Shown here piece after piece: positions 2,601-45,268 of a DNA stretch of 64,000 nt (its first letter is position 1; every line of letters begins with the position of its first letter). The stretch lies in IMG/VR virus record IMGVR_UViG_3300031673_000004, positions 64,485 to 128,484 of that record. The stretch is one strand, 5' to 3'. Source of the DNA: a virus. A program made the position numbers and the translations under genes. The notes below the pieces were generated by a model, which saw only the letters and a program-made list of their open reading frames with translations, made no database searches and had not been told where the DNA came from.

Positions 2601-4703
2601 ATGGCAAAGCAAAAAAAGAAAGATAAAACTAAGGTTGACTCTGTAGATCAACTAATAGTAAACATCCAGAAAGAGTACGGAAGGACAGCTATACGCCGAA
2701 TGAACGATAAATCAATTATAAAGGTAGATACAATTTCTACTGGGTCCATACTGGTTGATGAAGCCTTGGGAATAGGGGGATTCCCCCGTGGAAGGCTCGT
2801 AGAGGTATTCGGACCTGAAGGATCTGGAAAAGCACAGCCACTAGATGCAAAAATCCTAACGCCTATTGGGTGGAAAACTATGGGCGACATTCGCCCAGGC
2901 GATCTTATAATTGCGGCAGATGGCAATTCGGCTGTTGTCAGCGTGACATTTCCACAAGGTAAAAAAGACATATTTGAAATAGTTTTTTCAGATGGAAGTA
3001 AAACTGAATGTTGTAAAGACCACCTATGGACGGTACAAACTTGGGAGGACAAACAAAACAATTTATGGAGAATTTTGCCGTTATGCGAAATAGTGAAGGA
3101 CTTCAAACTAAGCGACAGATTAAAGTATATGATTCCATTAGTAGATCCCGTAACGTTTAGTAAGCAGGAAAAAGAATTACCATTAGATCCATACATTTTA
3201 GGAATGCTCCTCGGTGACGGGAGTTTTTCGCAAGGAAGTACTATAAAATTTTCTACAGCGGATGCTGAACTGGTAACTTCATTACAAACATTTGCTAAAC
3301 AAACTAAATTGAAAGTAAAGAAAATAGGTAAGAGTAAATATGATTACACAATTAGTAAAATTAAAAGGGGCCATAATAAATCGTGGCTAACAAAAACACT
3401 AGAAAAGCTTGGGTTGCATGGGCTACGATCTCACGAAAAGTTTATCCCTATAGAATACTTATATGCGTCAATCCAAGATAGAATGGCGATACTCCAAGGA
3501 TTATTGGACACTGACGGGTCTATTAGTAACGGACACCGTATGGTAGAGTTTGTTACAACAAGTAGATTACTTGCTGAAGGTGTGCAACATTTGGTACAAA
3601 GTCTAGGGGGTAAAACGGGCATATCGACTAAACAGACACATTATACCTACGCAGGAAATACATTATCAGGAAAACCTGCATATAGAATGTCCATACTAGC
3701 ACCAAGAAACATAGCGTTATTTAGACTAACACGTAAATTACACAAATCTAAAATTTGTAAACAATTAGACTATCGAAGCAGGTGGATAGCAGGCATAAAT
3801 TACATTGGTAAAAAAGAAGCCAAATGTATTTATGTAGATCACCCAGACCACCTGTACGTAACTAACGACTTTATCGTTACGCACAACACCACGTTATCAC
3901 TGCATTGTATCGCAGAGGCGCAAAAATTAGGAGGAGAGGCACTATTTATAGACGCTGAACATGCGTTTGATCCGACTTTAGCTCAAAAGATCGGGGTAAA
4001 CCCTGAATTACTTTCGATCTGTCAGCCTGACTCTGGAGAGCAAGGCTTGGACGTTCTTGAGATGGGCGTAGCGTCTGGTAAACTGGCCATAGCAGTCGTA
4101 GATTCTGTCTCTGCACTCGTCCCACAGGCTGAGATAGATGGAGACATGGCTGCGCAACAGATGGGCCTCCAGGCGCGTCTAATGGGCAAGGCAATGCGCA
4201 AAATCAATGGTTTTGTCTCTAAAACCAACACTTTAGTTATATTTATCAATCAACTAAGACAAAAAATTGGGGTAGTATTCGGAAATCCTGAAACGACCAG
4301 TGGTGGAAATGCCCTCAAGTTCTATGCAAGTATCCGCATGGACATTCGTAGAATTGGATCCATCAAGGAAAAAGGCAAGAAAAAAGATAAAGATGAAAAA
4401 GCAGAGGTTAAAATTATAGGTAACAAAGTAAGAATAAAAATTATTAAGAACAAATTAGCTCCACCCTTCAAAACAATAGAAACAGATCTTATCTTTGGGC
4501 ATGGATTTAATAAAGAAGGAGAAATTCTTGATCTCGGGTATGATTTAGATGTCTTAGAAATGCAGGGAGCTTGGTATAATTATAAGGACGAAAGAATAGG
4601 ACAGGGTAAGCCCAATGCATGTAAAGTATTAAGAAAGACACCTAAGTTACTAAGGGCTATTGTAGCGGACATTCACAAGGCGCAAGCAGATGAAAATAGC
4701 TAA
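2601..4703 (+). CDS. recA: RecA recombinase, intein-containing
   Basis: [56 protein letters not shown]. Confidence 0.97.
2832..3887 (+). mobile_element. Class 3-type intein (352 aa, N-terminal Ala) with LAGLIDADG endonuclease in the RecA P-loop
   Basis: Starts AQPLDAK, ends IVTHN/T; W in DHLW, C in AKCIYV, T in VTHN (WCT triplet); LGMLLGDG and LQGLLDTDG. Confidence 0.9.
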
Positions 4704-25575: not shown

Positions 25576-25649
25576 CGGCGCGTAGCTCAGTTTGGAAGAG
25601 CCCTCGCTCGATAAGCGAGAAGTCGTTGGTTCGAGTCCAACCGGGCCGA
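25576..25649 (+). tRNA. tRNA-Ile(GAT), C33 variant
   Basis: Cloverleaf; anticodon stem CTCGC/GCGAG, loop TC-GAT-AA; T loop TTCGAGT. Confidence 0.85.
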
Positions 25650-25656
25650 TAATTGA

Positions 25657-25731
25657 TGCGGGTTAGCGCAGCCTGGTTAGCGTGTCTGGCTCATAACCAG
25701 AAAGTCGCTGGTTCAAATCCAGCACCCGCAA
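25657..25731 (+). tRNA. tRNA-Met(CAT)
   Basis: Cloverleaf; TCTGG CT-CAT-AA CCAGA. Confidence 0.9.
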
Positions 25732-26644: not shown

Positions 26645-26659
26645 TTTGTGAGGGACACT

Positions 26660-28537
26660 ATGAAAGCATACGTGAATCTGTTCAAAGCATTGCCTGTAGG
26701 AAAGCGCACTAAGTCCTTCTCAACAAAGTACTTGGACAAGGGCGTGCTGGTCGAGGATTCTGTAATTGAGGCACACGGAACTGCCAAAGTTGCTAAACTG
26801 GTTCGAAGTCTCGTTCCTACAGATTCCCAGATGAACAAGACCTTCCACAAATCATGGAAGAAAGTCAGGGACGCATCTATTGAGCAGCTAGTTATAGAGC
26901 AGATCATTCACTATTTTACAACCTACAGCTTTGAAGCATTGGGCTTCTACAGTAAAGAGACTGTTTACATCCCGAATGAAAAGTTGGAGCTAGAAGCGAA
27001 AGGCGGCATCACTTTTTATGTTCTGCGTGGCATCACACGGGATGAACTGATTGATGTGGTACACAAGCTCATTTCTTCAGGGATTGCCCTATCTGACCAA
27101 GATCTTACTGATTTGGTCAAAGTCATTAAGGATCAAAAATTAAAAATTGATCCAGCTAAATCAAGCAATAGGGAGATGGCTGTCAGGTTGTACAACTTGC
27201 TTGATATTACTCCCAAAGACCCAGTTGAATACTTGCGAATGAAAGTATACGGTGCAACTGAAAGTACGCTGCTAATTAAGAACAAGGAAGCTATTGAAGC
27301 TATTTCTAGTTCTTATAGTTCTGCGCTTGGGAAAAAAATCAATGCGTTCAGCGAATACAAGAAAAAGTTTGGGCTTGAGGGTTTAGCGTCCATTTTCTAC
27401 AGGTTCAAGCCGTTGTTCTTGGCATTCAAAAATAAGAAATCAGCAGCGACAGTAAATAGTATTCGGCGGCTAGCAGTAAAGTATCACCAGCCCATGCCAG
27501 AAGATTACATTGCTTCAGTCACCAAGCATTTGCGCAACGGCACATTCAGTGCAGCCAAGCTCAATAAGAGCCTTACTAAAGCAAATATATTCAGAAAGGT
27601 ACGGCTCGCACAAGCACTGCGTCTCTATGATAACCAGGATGCATCTGGTATCGTGTACTCTATTCGCAATGGTAAATCATTTGCCGGTACTATCAATCCA
27701 CTTGGTAAGAGCGTCAAAAGATCACTATCAGTAGTAATGGATAGTTTGGGCGCAGACCTTTCCCATGTAAAAGGAAAGAAAATCTTTATGGATGCAGGGT
27801 TGGTTGTTCCTACATCAGGCAAGATGTTCATGGGTGATGTACCATTTGGGTCGTATTTTTCTACTGATGATTCACTAGTGCTAGGAGTATCTTGGCGAGA
27901 TCTAGAAGATGTCCGTGTTGATCTGGATCTTTCTATTATCTCAGTGGATGGAAAGATCGGTTGGGATGGTTATTACAGAGATCCAAGCTGCCTCTTTTCA
28001 GGAGATATTACAGCGGCCCCCAAGGGAGCTACTGAAGCACATTTGATTCGTGCCGATTCGGAGGATGGGATTTATCTCCTTAACTTGAATTACTATAACG
28101 CTAATTACTATAACGCTGATATTAATGGAGGAATAGTCCCATTCACTCTGTTCGTAACCGAGGAGAAAGGATTCGAGCGTATTGAACGGCGCGCTGTAAT
28201 GTCTCAGGATAATATGGTATTCTGGGCTGACTCTAGCATAGACAGCAAGTACAACCAGAAGACTATCGGTGTTTTGAAAATCAAGGATGGTACCAAAACA
28301 TTCCATGCCTTCGAGTTCAAGACTGGTAAAAGTATCACTTCCCGAAACAATGAAAAAAGTATGAACACGATTAGCTACTATGACAAATATCTGGATTCTC
28401 TTCTTGACTTGGAAACACTCGTAGAATGGGCAGGGGCTAAAATAGTAGATACTCCTGAGAAAGCAGATATTGATTTATCTATGAAATCGCTTACAAAGAG
28501 CACACTGATTGATCTTCTGGTAGCTGATACCAAATAA
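26660..28537 (+). CDS. Helical (ROT/TROVE-like) protein with C-terminal TerD-like domain
   Basis: C-terminal SW....VDLDLS....IGWDG.Y...FSGDITAAP.GATE; helical N-terminus with FYRFKPLFLAFK; GAGGGA RBS; TROVE-like assignment inferred from the known Prok-RING_4-type architecture. Confidence 0.6.
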   Translation: MKAYVNLFKALPVGKRTKSFSTKYLDKGVLVEDSVIEAHGTAKVAKLVRSLVPTDSQMNKTFHKSWKKVRDASIEQLVIEQIIHYFTTYSFEALGFYSKETVYIPNEKLELEAKGGITFYVLRGITRDELIDVVHKLISSGIALSDQDLTDLVKVIKDQKLKIDPAKSSNREMAVRLYNLLDITPKDPVEYLRMKVYGATESTLLIKNKEAIEAISSSYSSALGKKINAFSEYKKKFGLEGLASIFYRFKPLFLAFKNKKSAATVNSIRRLAVKYHQPMPEDYIASVTKHLRNGTFSAAKLNKSLTKANIFRKVRLAQALRLYDNQDASGIVYSIRNGKSFAGTINPLGKSVKRSLSVVMDSLGADLSHVKGKKIFMDAGLVVPTSGKMFMGDVPFGSYFSTDDSLVLGVSWRDLEDVRVDLDLSIISVDGKIGWDGYYRDPSCLFSGDITAAPKGATEAHLIRADSEDGIYLLNLNYYNANYYNADINGGIVPFTLFVTEEKGFERIERRAVMSQDNMVFWADSSIDSKYNQKTIGVLKIKDGTKTFHAFEFKTGKSITSRNNEKSMNTISYYDKYLDSLLDLETLVEWAGAKIVDTPEKADIDLSMKSLTKSTLIDLLVADTK

Positions 28538-29104: not shown

Positions 29105-29177
29105 GGGCACGTAGCTCTAACGGGAGAGCAGAAGCCCTGCAAGCTTACGGTTGCCAGTTCGAATCTGGCCGTGTCCA
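29105..29177 (+). tRNA. tRNA-Ala(TGC), C33 variant
   Basis: G3:U70 pair; loop CC-TGC-AA. Confidence 0.85.
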
Positions 29178-29183
29178 TGTTTT

Positions 29184-29256
29184 GCCCAGGTAGCCGAATG
29201 GAATAGGCGGCAGTCTTAGGAACTGCAATTTGGGGGTTCGAATCCCTTCCTGGGTA
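29184..29256 (+). tRNA. tRNA-Leu(TAG), short variable loop
   Basis: GCAGT CT-TAG-GA ACTGC. Confidence 0.85.
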
Positions 29257-29616: not shown

Positions 29617-29700
29617 CGAACGCCTGGAGATGTAGGTTTGAATCCTGCTCCCGTGGCAATTACGGGATAGTTTAAAGGAGAGAATACCAGGCCGTTTTTT
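29617..29700 (+). ncRNA. Circularly permuted tRNA-like RNA (YrlA-like topology)
   Basis: CCTGG, T arm, TCCCGT-loop-ACGGGA, D arm, CCAGG, then T-run. Confidence 0.65.
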
Positions 29701-30973: not shown

Positions 30974-31168
30974 AAATTACGAATCCCGGAGATCGCCGGT
31001 TCGAATCCGGTCAGGGTAACACCACGGCTAATCTGAATTTTACAAAGTCTAGCTAACATGTAAAATTCCCTTGAACCGATCTTCAGTTCGCGGCTGTCGA
31101 AGAGTTCATTGAACAAGATTAATACGGGATATATCCTGTAGCTCAGTGGTTAGAGCACCGGGAATTTT
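30974..31168 (+). ncRNA. Circularly permuted tRNA-like RNA with ~110-nt structured insert closing the acceptor stem
   Basis: TCCCGG, GCCGG-TTCGAAT-CCGGT, CAGGGTA, insert, TATCCTG, TAGCTCAGTGGTTAGAGC, CCGGGA. Confidence 0.7.
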
Positions 31169-31170
31169 AC

Positions 31171-31241
31171 GCGGGTATGGCCGACTGGATAGGCTCAGGG
31201 CCTCCAACCCTGCTAAGCACGTTCGATTCGTGTTGCCCGCT
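31171..31241 (+). tRNA. tRNA-Gly(TCC), C33 variant
   Basis: CAGGG CC-TCC-AA CCCTG; U73. Confidence 0.85.
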
Positions 31242-31244
31242 TAT

Positions 31245-31317
31245 GACAGTGTAGCCAAATGGTAAGGCACTGGTCTGCAAAACCAGTATGTGATGGGTTC
31301 AAATCCCTCCGCTGTCT
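31245..31317 (+). tRNA. tRNA-Cys(GCA)
   Basis: CTGGT CT-GCA-AA ACCAG; U73. Confidence 0.9.
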
Positions 31318-34649: not shown

Positions 34650-34711
34650 CCAAGTGGTATGGCAACGGACTTTTAATCCGTGTACCGGGAGTTCGATTCT
34701 CCCCGGTCCCA
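34640..34711 (+). tRNA. tRNA-Lys(TTT)
   Basis: ACGGA CT-TTT-AA TCCGT. Confidence 0.92.
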
Positions 34712-34822
34712 TAAAGATTGAAGAGGAAAATTAAATGCGTATTTCAGATATTAGCAGACGAAAACATAATTCTTAGTAGTATAATATTAACAAGTAACCA
34801 CGAAACGAAATGGAGAAAGATT

Positions 34823-35617
34823 ATGTCTGAAACAGAAAAACAGAAGCGAAGAGCAGAGTTACATGAGATCCTCGCAGTGGATGCGTCCACCAAGGGTGAA
34901 TTTGAAAAGATCATTGCTGAAGCAGCAAATACGTTTTCAAAAAAGGCAGATCATTTTCAAGGACATCATCGTAAACTAAAGATGAAAGATGCGGAGCGAG
35001 AAACAGAAGAGTTAGCTGGAGAAACTCACAAGGAAATGGTAACGACTGTTTCTCAAAAGTTAAAGTACATGTCGAAAGCATGTGTCAAATACTTCGATGT
35101 GCTGCTCCAGAAGGAATCAACTAACCAAACTGCAAAAGCAGATTTGATTGTTGATGGAGAAACACTCGTTGAAAACGCACCGGCAACTTGGCTGCTCGGT
35201 ATGGAAGATCGCTTAAAAAAGGTCAGGTCAGTTTTAGATGACATTCCTACCCTACAGCCTGGTGTAAAATGGGAGGCAGATCCTACTCGTGGGAATGACA
35301 TCTGGAGATCAGCTTTTCCAGAAACTAAGGAAAAAACTGAGCAAACCATCAAGCCTTTCGTTCTCTATGAAGCGACTAAGGATCACCCAGCACAGGTTGA
35401 TAAATTAGTTGAGCATGTAGTTGTAGGATTGTTCAGTATCGACCGTTGGAGCGGTGCGTTCTCCCCTGCACAGAAGTCTGCGATCATGGAGCGGGTAGAT
35501 AAGCTTATTCGTGGTTGCATGAAAGCTCGGCAACGTGCAAATAAGGCGGAAGTAGTGCAATGCAAAGCAGGCAAAAAGCTCTTTGATTATCTATTAGGAG
35601 GAAACGATTCTAAGTGA
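34823..35617 (+). CDS. Conserved-type hypothetical protein followed by a structured ncRNA
   Basis: GGAG RBS before the ATG at 34823; LHEILAV..FQG..R, P...LL..E, IPTL.P, LYEATKDHPAQV, WSGA..P, KARQRAN. Confidence 0.8.
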   Translation: MSETEKQKRRAELHEILAVDASTKGEFEKIIAEAANTFSKKADHFQGHHRKLKMKDAERETEELAGETHKEMVTTVSQKLKYMSKACVKYFDVLLQKESTNQTAKADLIVDGETLVENAPATWLLGMEDRLKKVRSVLDDIPTLQPGVKWEADPTRGNDIWRSAFPETKEKTEQTIKPFVLYEATKDHPAQVDKLVEHVVVGLFSIDRWSGAFSPAQKSAIMERVDKLIRGCMKARQRANKAEVVQCKAGKKLFDYLLGGNDSK

Positions 35618-35619
35618 AT

Positions 35620-36020
35620 TGAGTGAGCTAAGCTTAGTGTCATCGTTGATGTTACCGCCTACACTACGGCCAGTCATTGACAGCCCAGTATTGTAGGTTC
35701 CCCGGATTGACATCCGGGAAAGGGCTAAACTTAGTGTATTGCTCATAAACTTAGGCTAGAAACTGGGGTAGTACTTGATAGGTTATCGAACCCAAAGCTT
35801 TCGAGCTAAAGGTTCAACCCCCTGTGCGTAGGTTCAATTCCTATCCCGTTCATTTTACGAACGGGTAGCTCAGTGGTAGAGCAAGGGGATATAAGACTGA
35901 AATTACCTATTCAAGGAACTCCTAGTGAATGCACGGACACAGCACGTAACGCTGTATTTAGCAGGGTCATGCGCCTATACGAACGGTGACGACTATACTG
36001 TGCATGACCCTGCGCCTTTT
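35620..36020 (+). ncRNA. ~400-nt structured RNA with TAARCTTAG repeats and an embedded permuted tRNA-like domain (35818-35888), ending in a terminator-like hairpin
   Basis: CCCCT, GTAGG-TTCAATT-CCTAT, CCCGTTC-loop-GAACGGG, TAGCTCAGTGGTAGAGC, AGGGG, within a longer stem; GCAGGGTCATGC/GCATGACCCTGC followed by T-run. Confidence 0.7.
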
Positions 36021-36166
36021 TAACTCTGTTAGGAGATATTCTATTCTTTCAACTAAAGGAGATAAATCATGTTAATCGATGCTATCGAAGAGTATAAAGA
36101 GAAGCTGTAAATTGGAAAATGGTATTGTTCTAATTGCTGTAAAAAAACTAACTTAGGAGATTTGAA

Positions 36167-37201
36167 ATGACAAAAAATGTTTACGAAGAAGTAAGTGATT
36201 CCCTTGATAAAATGATGCCAAAGTTATCTTACCTTTGTGGTAACCAGCCTGATCGTGAACTGTGCAAGGCAGACGTAGCGTTAGCATTGATGGCAGTTTT
36301 GGATTCCGACAACAACAGTAAGGAAATATTCAGTAATTGGGCGGCAGAGCACTATAACGCTCTAAACAAGATAGCGGATAAAGAGGCTAAACCGCGTAAA
36401 ACGGTCGTGCCTCAGCCTATACAAGGTTTTCTGCAGGACGTTACTAAGGGGGTGGAACAGCAAGCGTTGTGCCGTAAGATACTGGCATATCGCACTGTGA
36501 AGACGGGTGAGGTTGTACGATATGATAAAGATGCTGACAAAACAGCATATGTGGTTGGCGAACAGGGTAATGTTGTAAGAGTAGACGCAGGAAGGTATTG
36601 CTACCCACCGGAGCGCCAAATAACACCCAGTATAGACATTGGGCGCTTGGCGGATGTTGATTATATTAACGATATTATTTTTAGTATTGTACACGAAGAA
36701 GACGCTCCTTTTGTGGCCATGCTTAAAAAATGTGCTAATTATAAAATCAAAGAAAAGAAGTTACCAGACGTGTTTCGTGAGTTGAGAGCAAATGTTGAAT
36801 ATGACAAGGTGCCGTGTAAGTTTATGGTAGTTAACTTTAATAAGTTTGTTGCTTTTATTGGTGAGATTCGTAGAGAACGCGGCATCGAAAAAGGTACTAG
36901 ATATTTACGTGATGCGTTTCGTATTGAAGTGACTGATAGTAAAGCGTTATTTAATACTGGTCATCTAGGTGTTTTTGATGATGACGTTCAAATCATTTCT
37001 ACTAGTAATCATCCTGACCTTTGTAAACTTATAGCAGAGGATGAAGTTTTTGCGGTGCCTTCTACCGAGTATCTTGGCGGCATGCCTGTTAGGATAAAAC
37101 TATTTGCGTTTAAAGATGATGATTCACCTTCTTTGACAATATACGAATTGATTTCACAGGTGATTATTGCACCAGATAAAGTCTTTGCCGGGAAGTGGTA
37201 A
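36167..37201 (+). CDS. Fusion of a small helical domain with a divergent major-capsid-protein-like domain
   Basis: RKIL....GE...YDKD..AYVVGEQG, Y.P..I, EED..F..L, TGHLG, EYLG.MPVR, IYE.I..VI resemble large-myovirus HK97-fold MCPs (recognised from memory, not searched). Confidence 0.55.
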   Translation: MTKNVYEEVSDSLDKMMPKLSYLCGNQPDRELCKADVALALMAVLDSDNNSKEIFSNWAAEHYNALNKIADKEAKPRKTVVPQPIQGFLQDVTKGVEQQALCRKILAYRTVKTGEVVRYDKDADKTAYVVGEQGNVVRVDAGRYCYPPERQITPSIDIGRLADVDYINDIIFSIVHEEDAPFVAMLKKCANYKIKEKKLPDVFRELRANVEYDKVPCKFMVVNFNKFVAFIGEIRRERGIEKGTRYLRDAFRIEVTDSKALFNTGHLGVFDDDVQIISTSNHPDLCKLIAEDEVFAVPSTEYLGGMPVRIKLFAFKDDDSPSLTIYELISQVIIAPDKVFAGKW

Positions 37202-40523: not shown

Positions 40524-40595
40524 CGGCCTGGAGGTGAATCGAACACCTGTCATTCGGTTAACAGCCGAACGCTTAAACCACTAAGCTACCAGGCC
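40524..40595 (-). tRNA. tRNA-Asn(GTT)
   Basis: TTCGG CT-GTT-AA CCGAA. Confidence 0.9.
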
Positions 40596-40599
40596 AAAA

Positions 40600-40671
40600 C
40601 AGGCCGAGAACGATTTGAACGCTCACCCTTAGTTTTGGAGACTAAGATGCTACCAGTTACACCATCGGCCC
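40600..40671 (-). tRNA. tRNA-Trp(CCA)
   Basis: TTAGT CT-CCA-AA ACTAA. Confidence 0.9.
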
Positions 40672-41017: not shown

Positions 41018-41088
41018 CAGGCTCGCAGGGACTCGAACCCCAATTCTTGACTCCAAAGGCCAATGTCCTACCATTGAACGACGAGCCT
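41018..41088 (-). tRNA. tRNA-Gln(TTG)
   Basis: TTGGC CT-TTG-GA GTCAA. Confidence 0.88.
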
Positions 41089-41092
41089 AACA

Positions 41093-41163
41093 CAGCGGCG
41101 GTAGGAATTGAACCCACGTAACGCAGTCCAGGGCCGCGTGCCAAACCACTAGGCGACACCGCT
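41093..41163 (-). tRNA. tRNA-Gln(CTG), C33 variant
   Basis: CGCGG CC-CTG-GA CTGCG. Confidence 0.85.
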
Positions 41164-44017: not shown

Positions 44018-45268
44018 TTATCCAATCTCCACTAAATATTTTATTGTCGTTTGATCAGGCTTATAAACGATAAATTCATTATTTCTAAGATCTGCACCCC
44101 CATGAGCAAACAAGGAATCATATTCTCCTCGTTTTCTCAAATTATTATAATCGAGAGAATACATCCAAGACTCATGTCGCTTTACGTGTAGCTGACTTCC
44201 CACATGAAAATCGAACAATGCTAAAAATCCTTTCCGTGAGTTACCCCGTGCCCAATAACTCCCAGACAAAGAGCAATAACCAATTGATTTCTGGGCCTTA
44301 TCTGCTCCGTAGCAGCCTGTCCCAAACATCGAGCCGGTCAGTACCACATTCGAAGGGCGAATCAACAACCCAGAATCAATAATGTTCCACCAATTTTCAT
44401 TGCGGGAACCATGCCAGTAGGTTTGTATCGTTTTATTTTTCGAGTTATTCACAGCTTTATTAAACTTATCTTGGGTTCGCTTATTGATAATCCGAAAAGC
44501 TTTCTTATATTGATTAGAATTATGCCCCAGGAACTTCCTAATGACCTGAATATCCCCATCCGAAGGGATTTCAATACCCAATCCCATAGCATCCAGGATA
44601 GTTGCCTGCTTGTTAGGCCCACTAGTCTGCTTCTGAGCAGTTGCAACGTTCACTTGCCCGCCCATAACATCGAGGGTAGCCTGTTCATTAGCGATCAAAC
44701 GCTGAACTTCTACCAAATTTCGGGAAGTAATGCAATCAACAGGCATATCTTTCATCTGGGGGTTTTGTTCATCGATAAGATGATACTGAACCTTCTTCAT
44801 TTTACGCGGAATGACCCGGTAAAGTTCAAGAAGCTTATCATTGATTACCTCAGTCCCTTTTCCAACGACTAAAAGAGGCACTAGATCATCCATAACAGCC
44901 TGAGCAGCAACAACCATTTGTGGAGTAACGGCTTCAGAACTGATAGTATAGTTCTGCTGCACAGATTTATTTGCAAACGCTTGGAGTTCCGTAACTATAG
45001 CTGCGACCGCAGGCATTCCAATTACAGAAAAGTCGGACTTAATAGCTTCCACCGAACGTAATTCGGTCATATCTACATAGCCCTTCTTCAATTTAGACTT
45101 GATTAGTGTCTCCCATTTCCTCTTTCCGACTGGATAATGGGTTACAGTAGAGGTGACATCGACCCGTCCCCAGGTTGATGTAATACTTCCATCGGGGTTT
45201 TCAACCATATCGTAGAATTTATTATGATTATCCGCCGACACGAAGATTAATTTTGCTACCCTACCCAT
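44018..45268 (-). CDS. PARP-family ADP-ribosyltransferase: WGR + regulatory + catalytic domains
   Basis: NHNKFY..TWGRV..KLKKGY; LYRVIP; YWHGSR, MFGTGCYGAD..KS.GY, NNEFIVY (H-Y-E). Confidence 0.92.
   Translation of the reverse strand: MGRVAKLIFVSADNHNKFYDMVENPDGSITSTWGRVDVTSTVTHYPVGKRKWETLIKSKLKKGYVDMTELRSVEAIKSDFSVIGMPAVAAIVTELQAFANKSVQQNYTISSEAVTPQMVVAAQAVMDDLVPLLVVGKGTEVINDKLLELYRVIPRKMKKVQYHLIDEQNPQMKDMPVDCITSRNLVEVQRLIANEQATLDVMGGQVNVATAQKQTSGPNKQATILDAMGLGIEIPSDGDIQVIRKFLGHNSNQYKKAFRIINKRTQDKFNKAVNNSKNKTIQTYWHGSRNENWWNIIDSGLLIRPSNVVLTGSMFGTGCYGADKAQKSIGYCSLSGSYWARGNSRKGFLALFDFHVGSQLHVKRHESWMYSLDYNNLRKRGEYDSLFAHGGADLRNNEFIVYKPDQTTIKYLVEIG

Follow-up and report, generated by a model that had tools for sequence, protein, structure and literature searches.

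The closest described counterparts of the locus analyzed here are the YrlA-class bacterial and phage Y RNAs (Rfam RF02553), which function with the Ro60/Rsr protein (PMC4201824). In these RNAs a tRNA mimic opened at the anticodon side, with the T arm, a capped acceptor-like stem and the D arm in that order and with conserved elbow bases, is carried on a closing helix and encoded beside the gene of the TROVE ring protein on the same strand. Location within about 4 kb of a Ro60/TROVE gene on the same strand has served as a criterion of the class, and the motif GNCGAAN0-1G near the 5' end is the presumed Ro60 contact. Binding by Ro60 and modification by TruB and DusA are further criteria of the class. 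In M. smegmatis the acceptor of YrlA is opened by RNase P and receives CCA (PMC4201824), and jumbo phages carry TROVE proteins (PMC7824862). Two other designs are relevant for comparison. In the two-piece, circularly permuted tmRNA, the T arm, acceptor 3' strand and CCA precede the acceptor 5' strand, and a long helix replaces the anticodon arm. RNAs that titrate or scaffold proteins, such as the TRAP leader with its spaced NAG triplets and CsrB/RsmZ with GGA motifs, have many short, evenly spaced, mostly unpaired repeats that suit an oligomeric RNA-binding protein.

We analyzed a 64,000-nt stretch of viral DNA (positions 64,485 to 128,484 of the IMG/VR record IMGVR_UViG_3300031673_000004), hereafter the window. 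A first-pass annotation of its sequence had described, after a gene for a 264-aa protein, an RNA of about 400 nt with repeated TAARCTTAG boxes, a long interrupted stem capped by a permuted tRNA mimic, and a terminator-like hairpin. The elements described there were all found at the places given, and the observation is thus confirmed. The ORF extends on the plus strand from the ATG at 34823 to the TGA at 35615-35617 and encodes a clear DUF7873 protein (PF25283, E 9.8e-74, 248.6 bits against a cut-off of 27), whose residues 12-258 match profile positions 3-242 of 244. A sigma-70-like promoter match lies upstream of the gene (34743-34770, plus strand; 9 of 12 hexamer positions), but it is a consensus match only; two such matches were found in the region against 3.2 expected, and none lies between the gene and the RNA. 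The 411-nt stretch containing the RNA folds better than all 100 dinucleotide shuffles (z = -4.4).

The 5' domain of the RNA, which like all other parts of the RNA is on the plus strand, begins directly after the stop codon with the stem P1, the 5' strand of which (35620-35626) pairs with 35739-35745. It encloses an array of about five 6-nt units with the core T-Y-A (35627-35657; T-Y-A at 35634, 35640 and 35652), which includes the first box (35627-35640), an inserted hairpin (35657-35698) that is variable and shortened in the relative locus L103, a second inserted hairpin with two compensatory pairs (35701-35718), and the second box (35724-35737), followed by the conserved T-A-T-T lead-in to the P1 3' strand (35724-35738 for this feature). 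The third box (35746-35755) comes directly after P1. The pattern TAARCTTAG matches three times on the plus strand within 35629-35754, and the whole window has six matches on both strands against 1.58 expected, a number reached in 0 of 100 shuffles.

The core of the RNA is the long helix P2, composed of an outer helix (35762-35767 with 35921-35926) and an inner helix (35774-35783 with 35905-35915, with one bulged T at 35910), separated by an internal loop of AGTA (35770-35773) and GAA (35916-35918). Compensatory pairs are observed in both helices. An extra hairpin (35788-35815) lies between P2 and the tRNA-like domain, and a small hairpin (35939-35955) precedes the long intrinsic terminator at 35961-36021, which consists of a 14-bp stem (35961-36013) with five compensatory pairs and a T run (36017-36021). 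The tRNA-like domain itself (35819-35888) runs in the order anticodon-stem 3' strand, T arm, 7-bp acceptor closed by a 7-nt loop without CCA, D arm, anticodon-stem 5' strand, and forms 21 of 21 pairs. Its 5-bp anticodon stem continues into P2, and hence there is no 7-nt anticodon loop, as would be required for a permuted gene of a functional tRNA.

The only Rfam match of this element is YrlA. It covers the full model length and reproduces the arm order, but the score is 32.3 bits (E 4.6e-5 on 701 nt) against a gathering score of 69, and the element is not listed at that threshold. The tRNA-like design, for which the first-pass annotation knew of no described function, is therefore not without precedent, though the RNA is not a member of the YrlA family. 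It is three to four times longer, has a hexamer-repeat domain that YrlA lacks, and its presumed partner is DUF7873, a protein of about 250 aa, rather than the TROVE ring protein. The GNCGAAN0-1G motif is absent from the window RNA (35618-36030), and among relatives it occurs in 7 of 72 5' domains against 3.5 in shuffles, with a shuffle maximum of 11. We considered whether this is nevertheless an ordinary Ro60 Y RNA whose TROVE gene lies outside the window, with DUF7873 as an accessory or unrelated neighbor. No TROVE hit was found by Pfam among ten window ORFs, including every near neighbor, and a profile of four phage TROVE ORFs matched none of the 46 window ORFs of 150 aa or more. In particular, the 629-aa ORF at 26648-28537, examined as a possible TROVE protein, gave no hit in Pfam, a PDB sequence search, a phmmer comparison with four phage TROVE ORFs, NCBIfam or PADLOC, all of these being tests by sequence only. 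Of 30 related phage records only 4 have a TROVE gene, and among the 14 records that are at least 90% complete only one does. However, in three of the 30 records (G010, G016 and G023) TROVE ORFs lie next to or within a few kb of DUF7873, so that a link to Ro60 is not excluded, although we regard this explanation as unlikely.

To find out whether homologous genes lack the downstream elements, the condition under which the original proposal would have failed, we built a covariance model of the tRNA-like domain (R1) and searched the window together with 97 related loci. The window domain scores 67.8 bits (E 3.6e-15). At E<=1e-9 there are 86 matches in 98 sources, one per source, all on the plus strand just after the gene, that is, in the window and in 85 of the 97 loci. 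Ten of the other 12 loci were searched without filters: eight have weaker modules in the same place (22-45 bits), one has none, and one contig ends 175 nt after the stop codon; the remaining two contigs end at the gene and were left out of the search. These loci represent the closest relatives (the best 80 of 205 in IMG/VR) and do not sample far bacterial relatives; the one actinobacterial locus (L099, a partial match) has no module. No other protein neighbor is conserved, the next largest ORF cluster occurring in 7 of 90 unique loci.

In 85 distinct domains 94.6% of cells pair, against 60.6% in shuffles, with 615 double changes against 177; none of 500 shuffles reaches this, and slid partners give at most 49.3%. 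The pair counts are inflated, since one set of modules was chosen by a script that demanded pairing and another was fitted to the model, but the strand and position bias and the CCA counts do not suffer from this. The bases for tRNA tertiary contacts are near-invariant (U8 in 85 of 85 domains, G18 and G19 in 84 each, T54 in 85, C56 in 84, and A58 in 83), and the tRNA-shaped elbow proposed by the first-pass annotation is real. The whole RNA is kept in close relatives, with 22 of 106 pairs compensated. The stem equivalent to P1 covaries across relatives, although an ad hoc helix finder gave the expected P1 form in 27 of 71 loci that we picked by eye, the other loci being mis-called or unclear. 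A strict pattern for the AGUA/GAA internal loop is present on both sides in 11 of 71 loci, including the window, against 1.3 in shuffles (maximum 5), and is therefore a subgroup trait and not a family rule.

The repeats are a family-wide, 6-nt-periodic and mostly unpaired feature, which fits protein-binding sites. In 62 5' domains T-Y-A at lag 6 occurs 120 times against 20.1 expected (z = 21.6), and lags 12 and 18 give z = 10.3 and z = 6.1, respectively. The box sequences differ between phages but agree within one RNA. In contrast to the NAG and GGA elements of the TRAP leader and CsrB/RsmZ, the core here is U-Y-A with a 6-nt period and drifting flanks, and the array is closed by a stem and fused to a tRNA mimic. 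In the clade of the window the box is palindromic and part of box 1 can pair with box 2, and therefore the boxes need not all be single-stranded, as had been supposed. Possible autoregulation through boxes in front of the gene was not supported, since a phage's own box occurs there 34 times against 25.7 with swapped boxes, and 85 of 1000 permutations are as high.

The closed acceptor proved to be a peculiarity of the window's clade, which has lost the N-CCA that follows the acceptor 3' strand in 69 of 85 distinct domains (about 1 in 64 by chance), where it is encoded rather than added. Together with the 7-bp acceptor, T at base -1 in 47 of 85 domains, and an order of parts that in our reading matches a tmRNA opened after its first helix, this raises the possibility of a two-piece tRNA- or tmRNA-like RNA that would be cut by RNase P, charged at its CCA end and act on the ribosome, with DUF7873 as an SmpB-like helper. 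Two relatives have a tmRNA gene close by. However, the window and its close relatives keep the gene and the whole RNA without CCA, and a full D arm is present. The discriminator base varies (T 32, G 18, C 10, A 9). The pair corresponding to G3:U70 (columns 31/149) is U-G in 1 of 85 domains, the window having A3:U70. ARAGORN calls no tmRNA in the window, no Rfam tmRNA family appears even at E<=10, and no tag frame is recognisable: of three repeat arrays read by eye, one has an early stop in the shared frame. This reading is thus very unlikely.

It is also possible that the RNA works without the protein, either as a processing and stability element of tRNA-island transcripts, with tRNA-like handles for RNase P or RNase E plus a terminator, or as a tRNA decoy on its own, and follows DUF7873 only because the two are inherited and transcribed together. 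The window's unit sits among 23 tRNA genes, 48 of 90 unique loci have a tRNA gene in the fetched flanks (36 of them within 1200 nt downstream on the same strand), and the window holds a further free-standing permuted mimic without a DUF7873 gene at 29623-29691. On the other hand, 42 of 90 loci have no tRNA gene nearby, the linkage to DUF7873 (85-93 of 97 loci) is far tighter than to any other neighbor and holds across phages of unrelated hosts, and a periodic array that drifts between phages but stays uniform within one RNA is hard to explain by RNase handles. We therefore consider this alternative doubtful, while noting that protein-RNA binding remains an inference.

DUF7873, with 539 relatives detected, has no known fold. 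For its AF2 model (pLDDT 86.6), Foldseek against PDB gave no match at E<=0.001 (the best was Rogdi at 9.9e-3, and Cas7 rows had probability <=0.10), VIA-align gave a best Z of 9.1 to a designed helical protein, which is within the noise for helical models, and BFVD gave nothing at E<=0.001. A PDB sequence profile search, PHROGs, NCBIfam and PADLOC gave no hits, the Atlas returned only DUF7873 clusters, among them a bacterial one of Actinomycetota, and a blastn search of 34700-36100 against the phage collection found no match. The protein is predicted to form a homodimer, with a model score of 0.74 against a best control of 0.00, a mark reached by 20 of 30 proteins solved as pairs and 1 of 23 solved as single chains; runs agree in at least 91% of contacts, and partner pLDDT is 87. 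No paper mentioning DUF7873 was found, and literature searches on YrlA, Y RNAs and permuted tRNAs in phages retrieved none that, judged by titles and abstract beginnings, describes this pair.

The above analysis suggests that the locus is one unit, comprising the DUF7873 gene and a structured non-coding RNA made from the same transcript or from just behind it, and probably encodes an undescribed RNA-protein particle akin to bacterial Y RNAs. We propose that a DUF7873 homodimer binds the repeat domain, formed by P1, its enclosed U-Y-A array and the flanking repeats, and that the particle would present the tRNA-shaped end, with a complete T-loop/D-loop elbow and an acceptor/T minihelix but no anticodon arm, to a factor that recognises tRNA, such as a tRNA-processing enzyme, an exoribonuclease or a host enzyme that attacks tRNA. 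The anatomy of the RNA, its conservation and covariation, and the exclusive linkage of gene and RNA follow directly from the sequences, whereas its transcription as a stable RNA, for which no transcript data were found, its processing, protein binding, the dimer and any function are inferred. Accordingly, the first-pass interpretation of a protein-RNA pair with repeats as binding sites is partly supported, the pair being one in the genomic sense. In most relatives the N-CCA is followed by a short linker that usually ends in U, and RNase P could open the RNA into two base-paired pieces; the plain closed loop of the window's clade means that a free CCA end cannot be essential to the shared function. 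A more speculative and rather improbable extension is that large phages use the particle as a tRNA decoy, in which the free CCA end opened by RNase P in most lineages would soak up, or report, host defence enzymes attacking the acceptor end or elbow of tRNAs, the hexamer array would load the protein that protects and positions the decoy, and lineages with a sealed acceptor would have specialised on elbow-recognising targets.

Ro60/Y RNA is the only described particle built on this kind of tRNA mimic, and here the same RNA design travels with a different protein of unknown fold, plus a periodic repeat domain. It occurs in hundreds of phage contigs and in cultured phages of Vibrio, Rhizobium, Gordonia, Klebsiella and cyanobacteria, usually inside tRNA islands. 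In the cultured Rhizobium phage RHph_Y65 the module lies at 2436-2522 of the locus L119, and cultured carriers also include Arthrobacter phages. If the pair is a particle, it would be a Ro60-independent counterpart of Ro60/Y-RNA particles used by large phages that carry tRNA islands, and thus a new class of phage ribonucleoprotein acting on the tRNA or translation interface, which would also give a function to a Pfam DUF.

The analyzed window is phage-like, holding 23 tRNA genes and ORFs that match phage primase, methyltransferase and head-protein families. The gene of interest (34823-35617, 264 aa) encodes a full-length member of Pfam DUF7873 (E 9.8e-74). Between its stop codon and a strong intrinsic terminator (stem 35961-36013, T run 36017-36021) lie about 400 nt that contain no ORF of 60 aa or more on the + strand, and this stretch folds better than all 100 shuffles (z = -4.4). 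The first-pass annotation had described a hypothetical gene followed by a ~400-nt ncRNA with repeated TAARCTTAG boxes, a long interrupted stem, a permuted tRNA mimic and a terminator-like hairpin, and this observation holds, since every element it named is in place. In particular, TAARCTTAG occurs three times on the + strand within 126 nt, whereas 1.58 occurrences are expected in the whole window on both strands.

The tRNA-like domain (35819-35888) consists of a 5-nt strand, a 4-nt variable region, a T arm, a 7-bp acceptor stem closed by a 7-nt loop, two bases, a D arm, one base, and the strand complementary to the first. All 21 pairs form, and the domain represents a tRNA opened at the anticodon and sealed at the acceptor. 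The only Rfam family that it resembles is YrlA, the bacterial Y RNA, with 32.3 bits over the full model against a gathering score of 69 (E 4.6e-5 on 701 nt).

To determine whether the RNA is conserved together with the gene, we collected loci encoding relatives of DUF7873, which has 539 relatives in a large protein set. The best 80 of 205 IMG/VR stretches encoding a relative were used, together with 18 stretches from species genomes, all of them MAG contigs, and 12 from metagenome contigs, so that the sample is limited to the closest relatives. A crude script for the permuted topology found a module 0-800 nt after the stop codon on the strand of the gene in 83 of 100 loci, with only 2 hits upstream and 3 on the other strand. 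A covariance model (R1) was then built from 35 such modules. At E<=1e-9 it yields 86 matches in 98 sources, all of them on the + strand and each lying just after the gene, namely in the window and in 85 of 97 loci, including loci missed by the script. Of the other 12 loci, two are on contigs that end at the gene, eight have weaker modules in the same place (22-45 bits with filters off), one is on a contig that ends 175 nt after the stop codon, and one, a partial actinobacterial match, has no module. In the 85 distinct domains, 94.6% of cells pair compared to 60.6% in shuffles, and 615 double changes are observed against 177, a level reached by 0 of 500 shuffles; slid controls pair at 49.3% at most. 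The seed modules were chosen for pairing and the alignment was fitted to the model, but the bias in strand and position is free of this circularity. The bases that make the tRNA elbow are near-invariant: U8 in 85 of 85 domains, G18 and G19 in 84 of 85 each, T54 in 85 of 85, C56 in 84 of 85, and A58 in 83 of 85.

Additional permuted elements were observed in the window. A second compact tRNA mimic with a sealed acceptor and no DUF7873 gene beside it (29623-29691, + strand) is scored by R1 at 38.0 bits (E 8.1e-10 on 1.9 kb with filters off). A third permuted tRNA-like element (30985-31162, + strand) has a 113-nt insert in the acceptor loop; the topology script finds 21 of 21 pairs, but R1 scores only the halves weakly, at 17.7 and 8.7 bits. 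Lower R1 matches (24-32 bits) at 40565-40633 (- strand), 29144-29213, 41059-41126 (- strand), 31208-31274 and 25616-25689 straddle two adjacent tRNA genes, taking the T arm of one and the D arm of the next, a class of false positives of which Chen et al. 2014 (PMC4201824) warn. In one relative (locus L002, 3978-4125), the linker inside the acceptor loop of the second mimic itself holds a tRNA-like sequence ending in CCA (Rfam tRNA at 24.6 bits, below threshold).

The close relatives of the window locus (L101, L102 and L103, with 82-89% protein identity) keep the whole 400 nt, and 22 of 106 consensus pairs are compensated, in the T stem, the acceptor, both parts of the long helix and the terminator. 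Across the family, the part between the stop codon and the tRNA-like domain follows a common plan: a short G-rich strand, a run of 6-nt units, sometimes inserted hairpins, one more unit, a T-rich lead-in, the strand complementary to the first, which completes the P1 stem, one or two more units, and, about 44-57 nt on, the domain. In 62 5' domains, T-Y-A recurs at lag 6 120 times against 20.1 expected (z 21.6), and lags 12 and 18 give z 10.3 and 6.1, respectively. The units differ between phages but agree within one RNA, and the TAARCTTAG boxes are the version found in this window. Here the box is palindromic, so the consensus fold pairs box 1 with box 2 without any covariation to support it, whereas in most relatives the units cannot pair with each other. 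The long helix with one bulged U recurs in the 27 loci where P1 could be placed. An AGUA/GAA internal loop at its base is a subgroup trait, observed in 11 of 71 loci, the window included, against 1.3 in shuffles.

In 69 of the 85 distinct domains the acceptor 3' strand is followed by one base and then CCA (the topology script gave 72 of 90), and the linker ends in T in 47 of 85 and in TAT in 35 of 85. This is what RNase P and the 3' trimming enzymes would need to open the RNA into two paired pieces with a tRNA-like end, as reported for YrlA of M. smegmatis (PMC4201824). However, the window, L101 and L103 have a plain 7-nt or 6-nt loop and no CCA. They nevertheless keep the gene and the RNA, so a free CCA end is not required for whatever the unit does.

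The AlphaFold model of the DUF7873 protein is confident (pLDDT 86.6) and shows four long helices and a long beta hairpin sheet, but no search gave a convincing fold or family. Two copies are predicted to form a symmetric dimer with about 270 contacts. The score of this model is 0.74, a mark reached by 20 of 30 proteins solved as pairs and by 1 of 23 solved as single chains, against a best control of 0.00; the runs agree in at least 91% of contacts, and the partner pLDDT is 87.

No other ORF family accompanies the gene, the next cluster being present in 7 of 90 unique loci. tRNA genes lie in the flanks of 48 of 90 loci, and tmRNA genes in 2. In the window, the ORF after the RNA (36167-37201, + strand) has a weak match to a major-head-protein PHROG over residues 86-168 only, with no other head genes around it, and a 416-aa ORF near the second tRNA cluster (44018-45268, - strand) has a PARP catalytic domain (E 4.7e-21), also matches phrog_23333, and represents an ADP-ribosyltransferase-like gene. 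In a T4-like contig (locus L001), the ORF just after the RNA (4253-4603) has a weak, sub-threshold match to the colicin D tRNase domain (E 0.0021, 18.8 bits against 25).

The resemblance to YrlA raised the possibility of a link to Ro60. TROVE is found in 4 of 30 DUF7873-bearing viral records, and in 1 of the 14 that are at least 90% complete; in three of the four records it lies next to or within a few kb of DUF7873. In the window, no TROVE was found by Pfam on ten ORFs, nor by a profile of four phage TROVE ORFs among all 46 ORFs of 150 aa or more. A TROVE-like reading of a 629-aa ORF (26648-28537, + strand) found no support at the sequence level, as this ORF has no match in Pfam, PHROGs, NCBIfam, PADLOC, PDB sequences or the four phage TROVE ORFs. 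The presumed Ro60 contact motif is absent from the window RNA and is not enriched in the family. The RNA therefore works like a YrlA-type mimic in shape but fails four of the testable criteria for membership.

The protein also occurs in cultured phages. A tblastn search finds it in 75 phage records (Vibrio 29, Rhizobium 12, Gordonia 12, Klebsiella 7, Serratia 6 and others), and every hit listed is either annotated as hypothetical or lies in a record without annotation. In Rhizobium phage RHph_Y65, the 454-nt gap after the gene is unannotated and holds an R1 match of 63.1 bits with CCA. In Klebsiella phage vB_KpM_FBKp24 there are two matches, at 39.5 and 52.3 bits, and an annotated 'tRNA-Sup-TTA' (2515-2594 of locus L120, taken from this phage) overlaps the second (2557-2651) and is probably a mis-call of that RNA. 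We found no paper naming DUF7873 and, judged by titles and abstract beginnings, none describing the pair (the literature considered included Chen et al. 2014, Iyer et al. 2021 and Wang et al. 2018), although Burroughs and Aravind 2016, Sim et al. 2020 and the supplements of Chen et al. 2014 might list related phage RNAs.

The first-pass annotation interpreted the locus as a protein-RNA pair in which single-stranded repeats are binding sites for the upstream protein and the RNA displays a tRNA-shaped elbow, and this interpretation is supported only in part. The above analysis demonstrates the anatomy of the unit, its conservation, its covariation and the exclusive linkage of gene and RNA, whereas binding, expression and function are inferred, on present evidence without transcript data. 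It also counts against the particle view given below that a phage's own boxes are not clearly enriched at the start of its gene, and that the linkage was established on the closest relatives only. Nevertheless, the best-supported view is a two-part unit of protein and RNA, which is probably a particle in which a DUF7873 dimer holds the repeat domain and the RNA shows a tRNA elbow and minihelix to some tRNA-recognizing factor.
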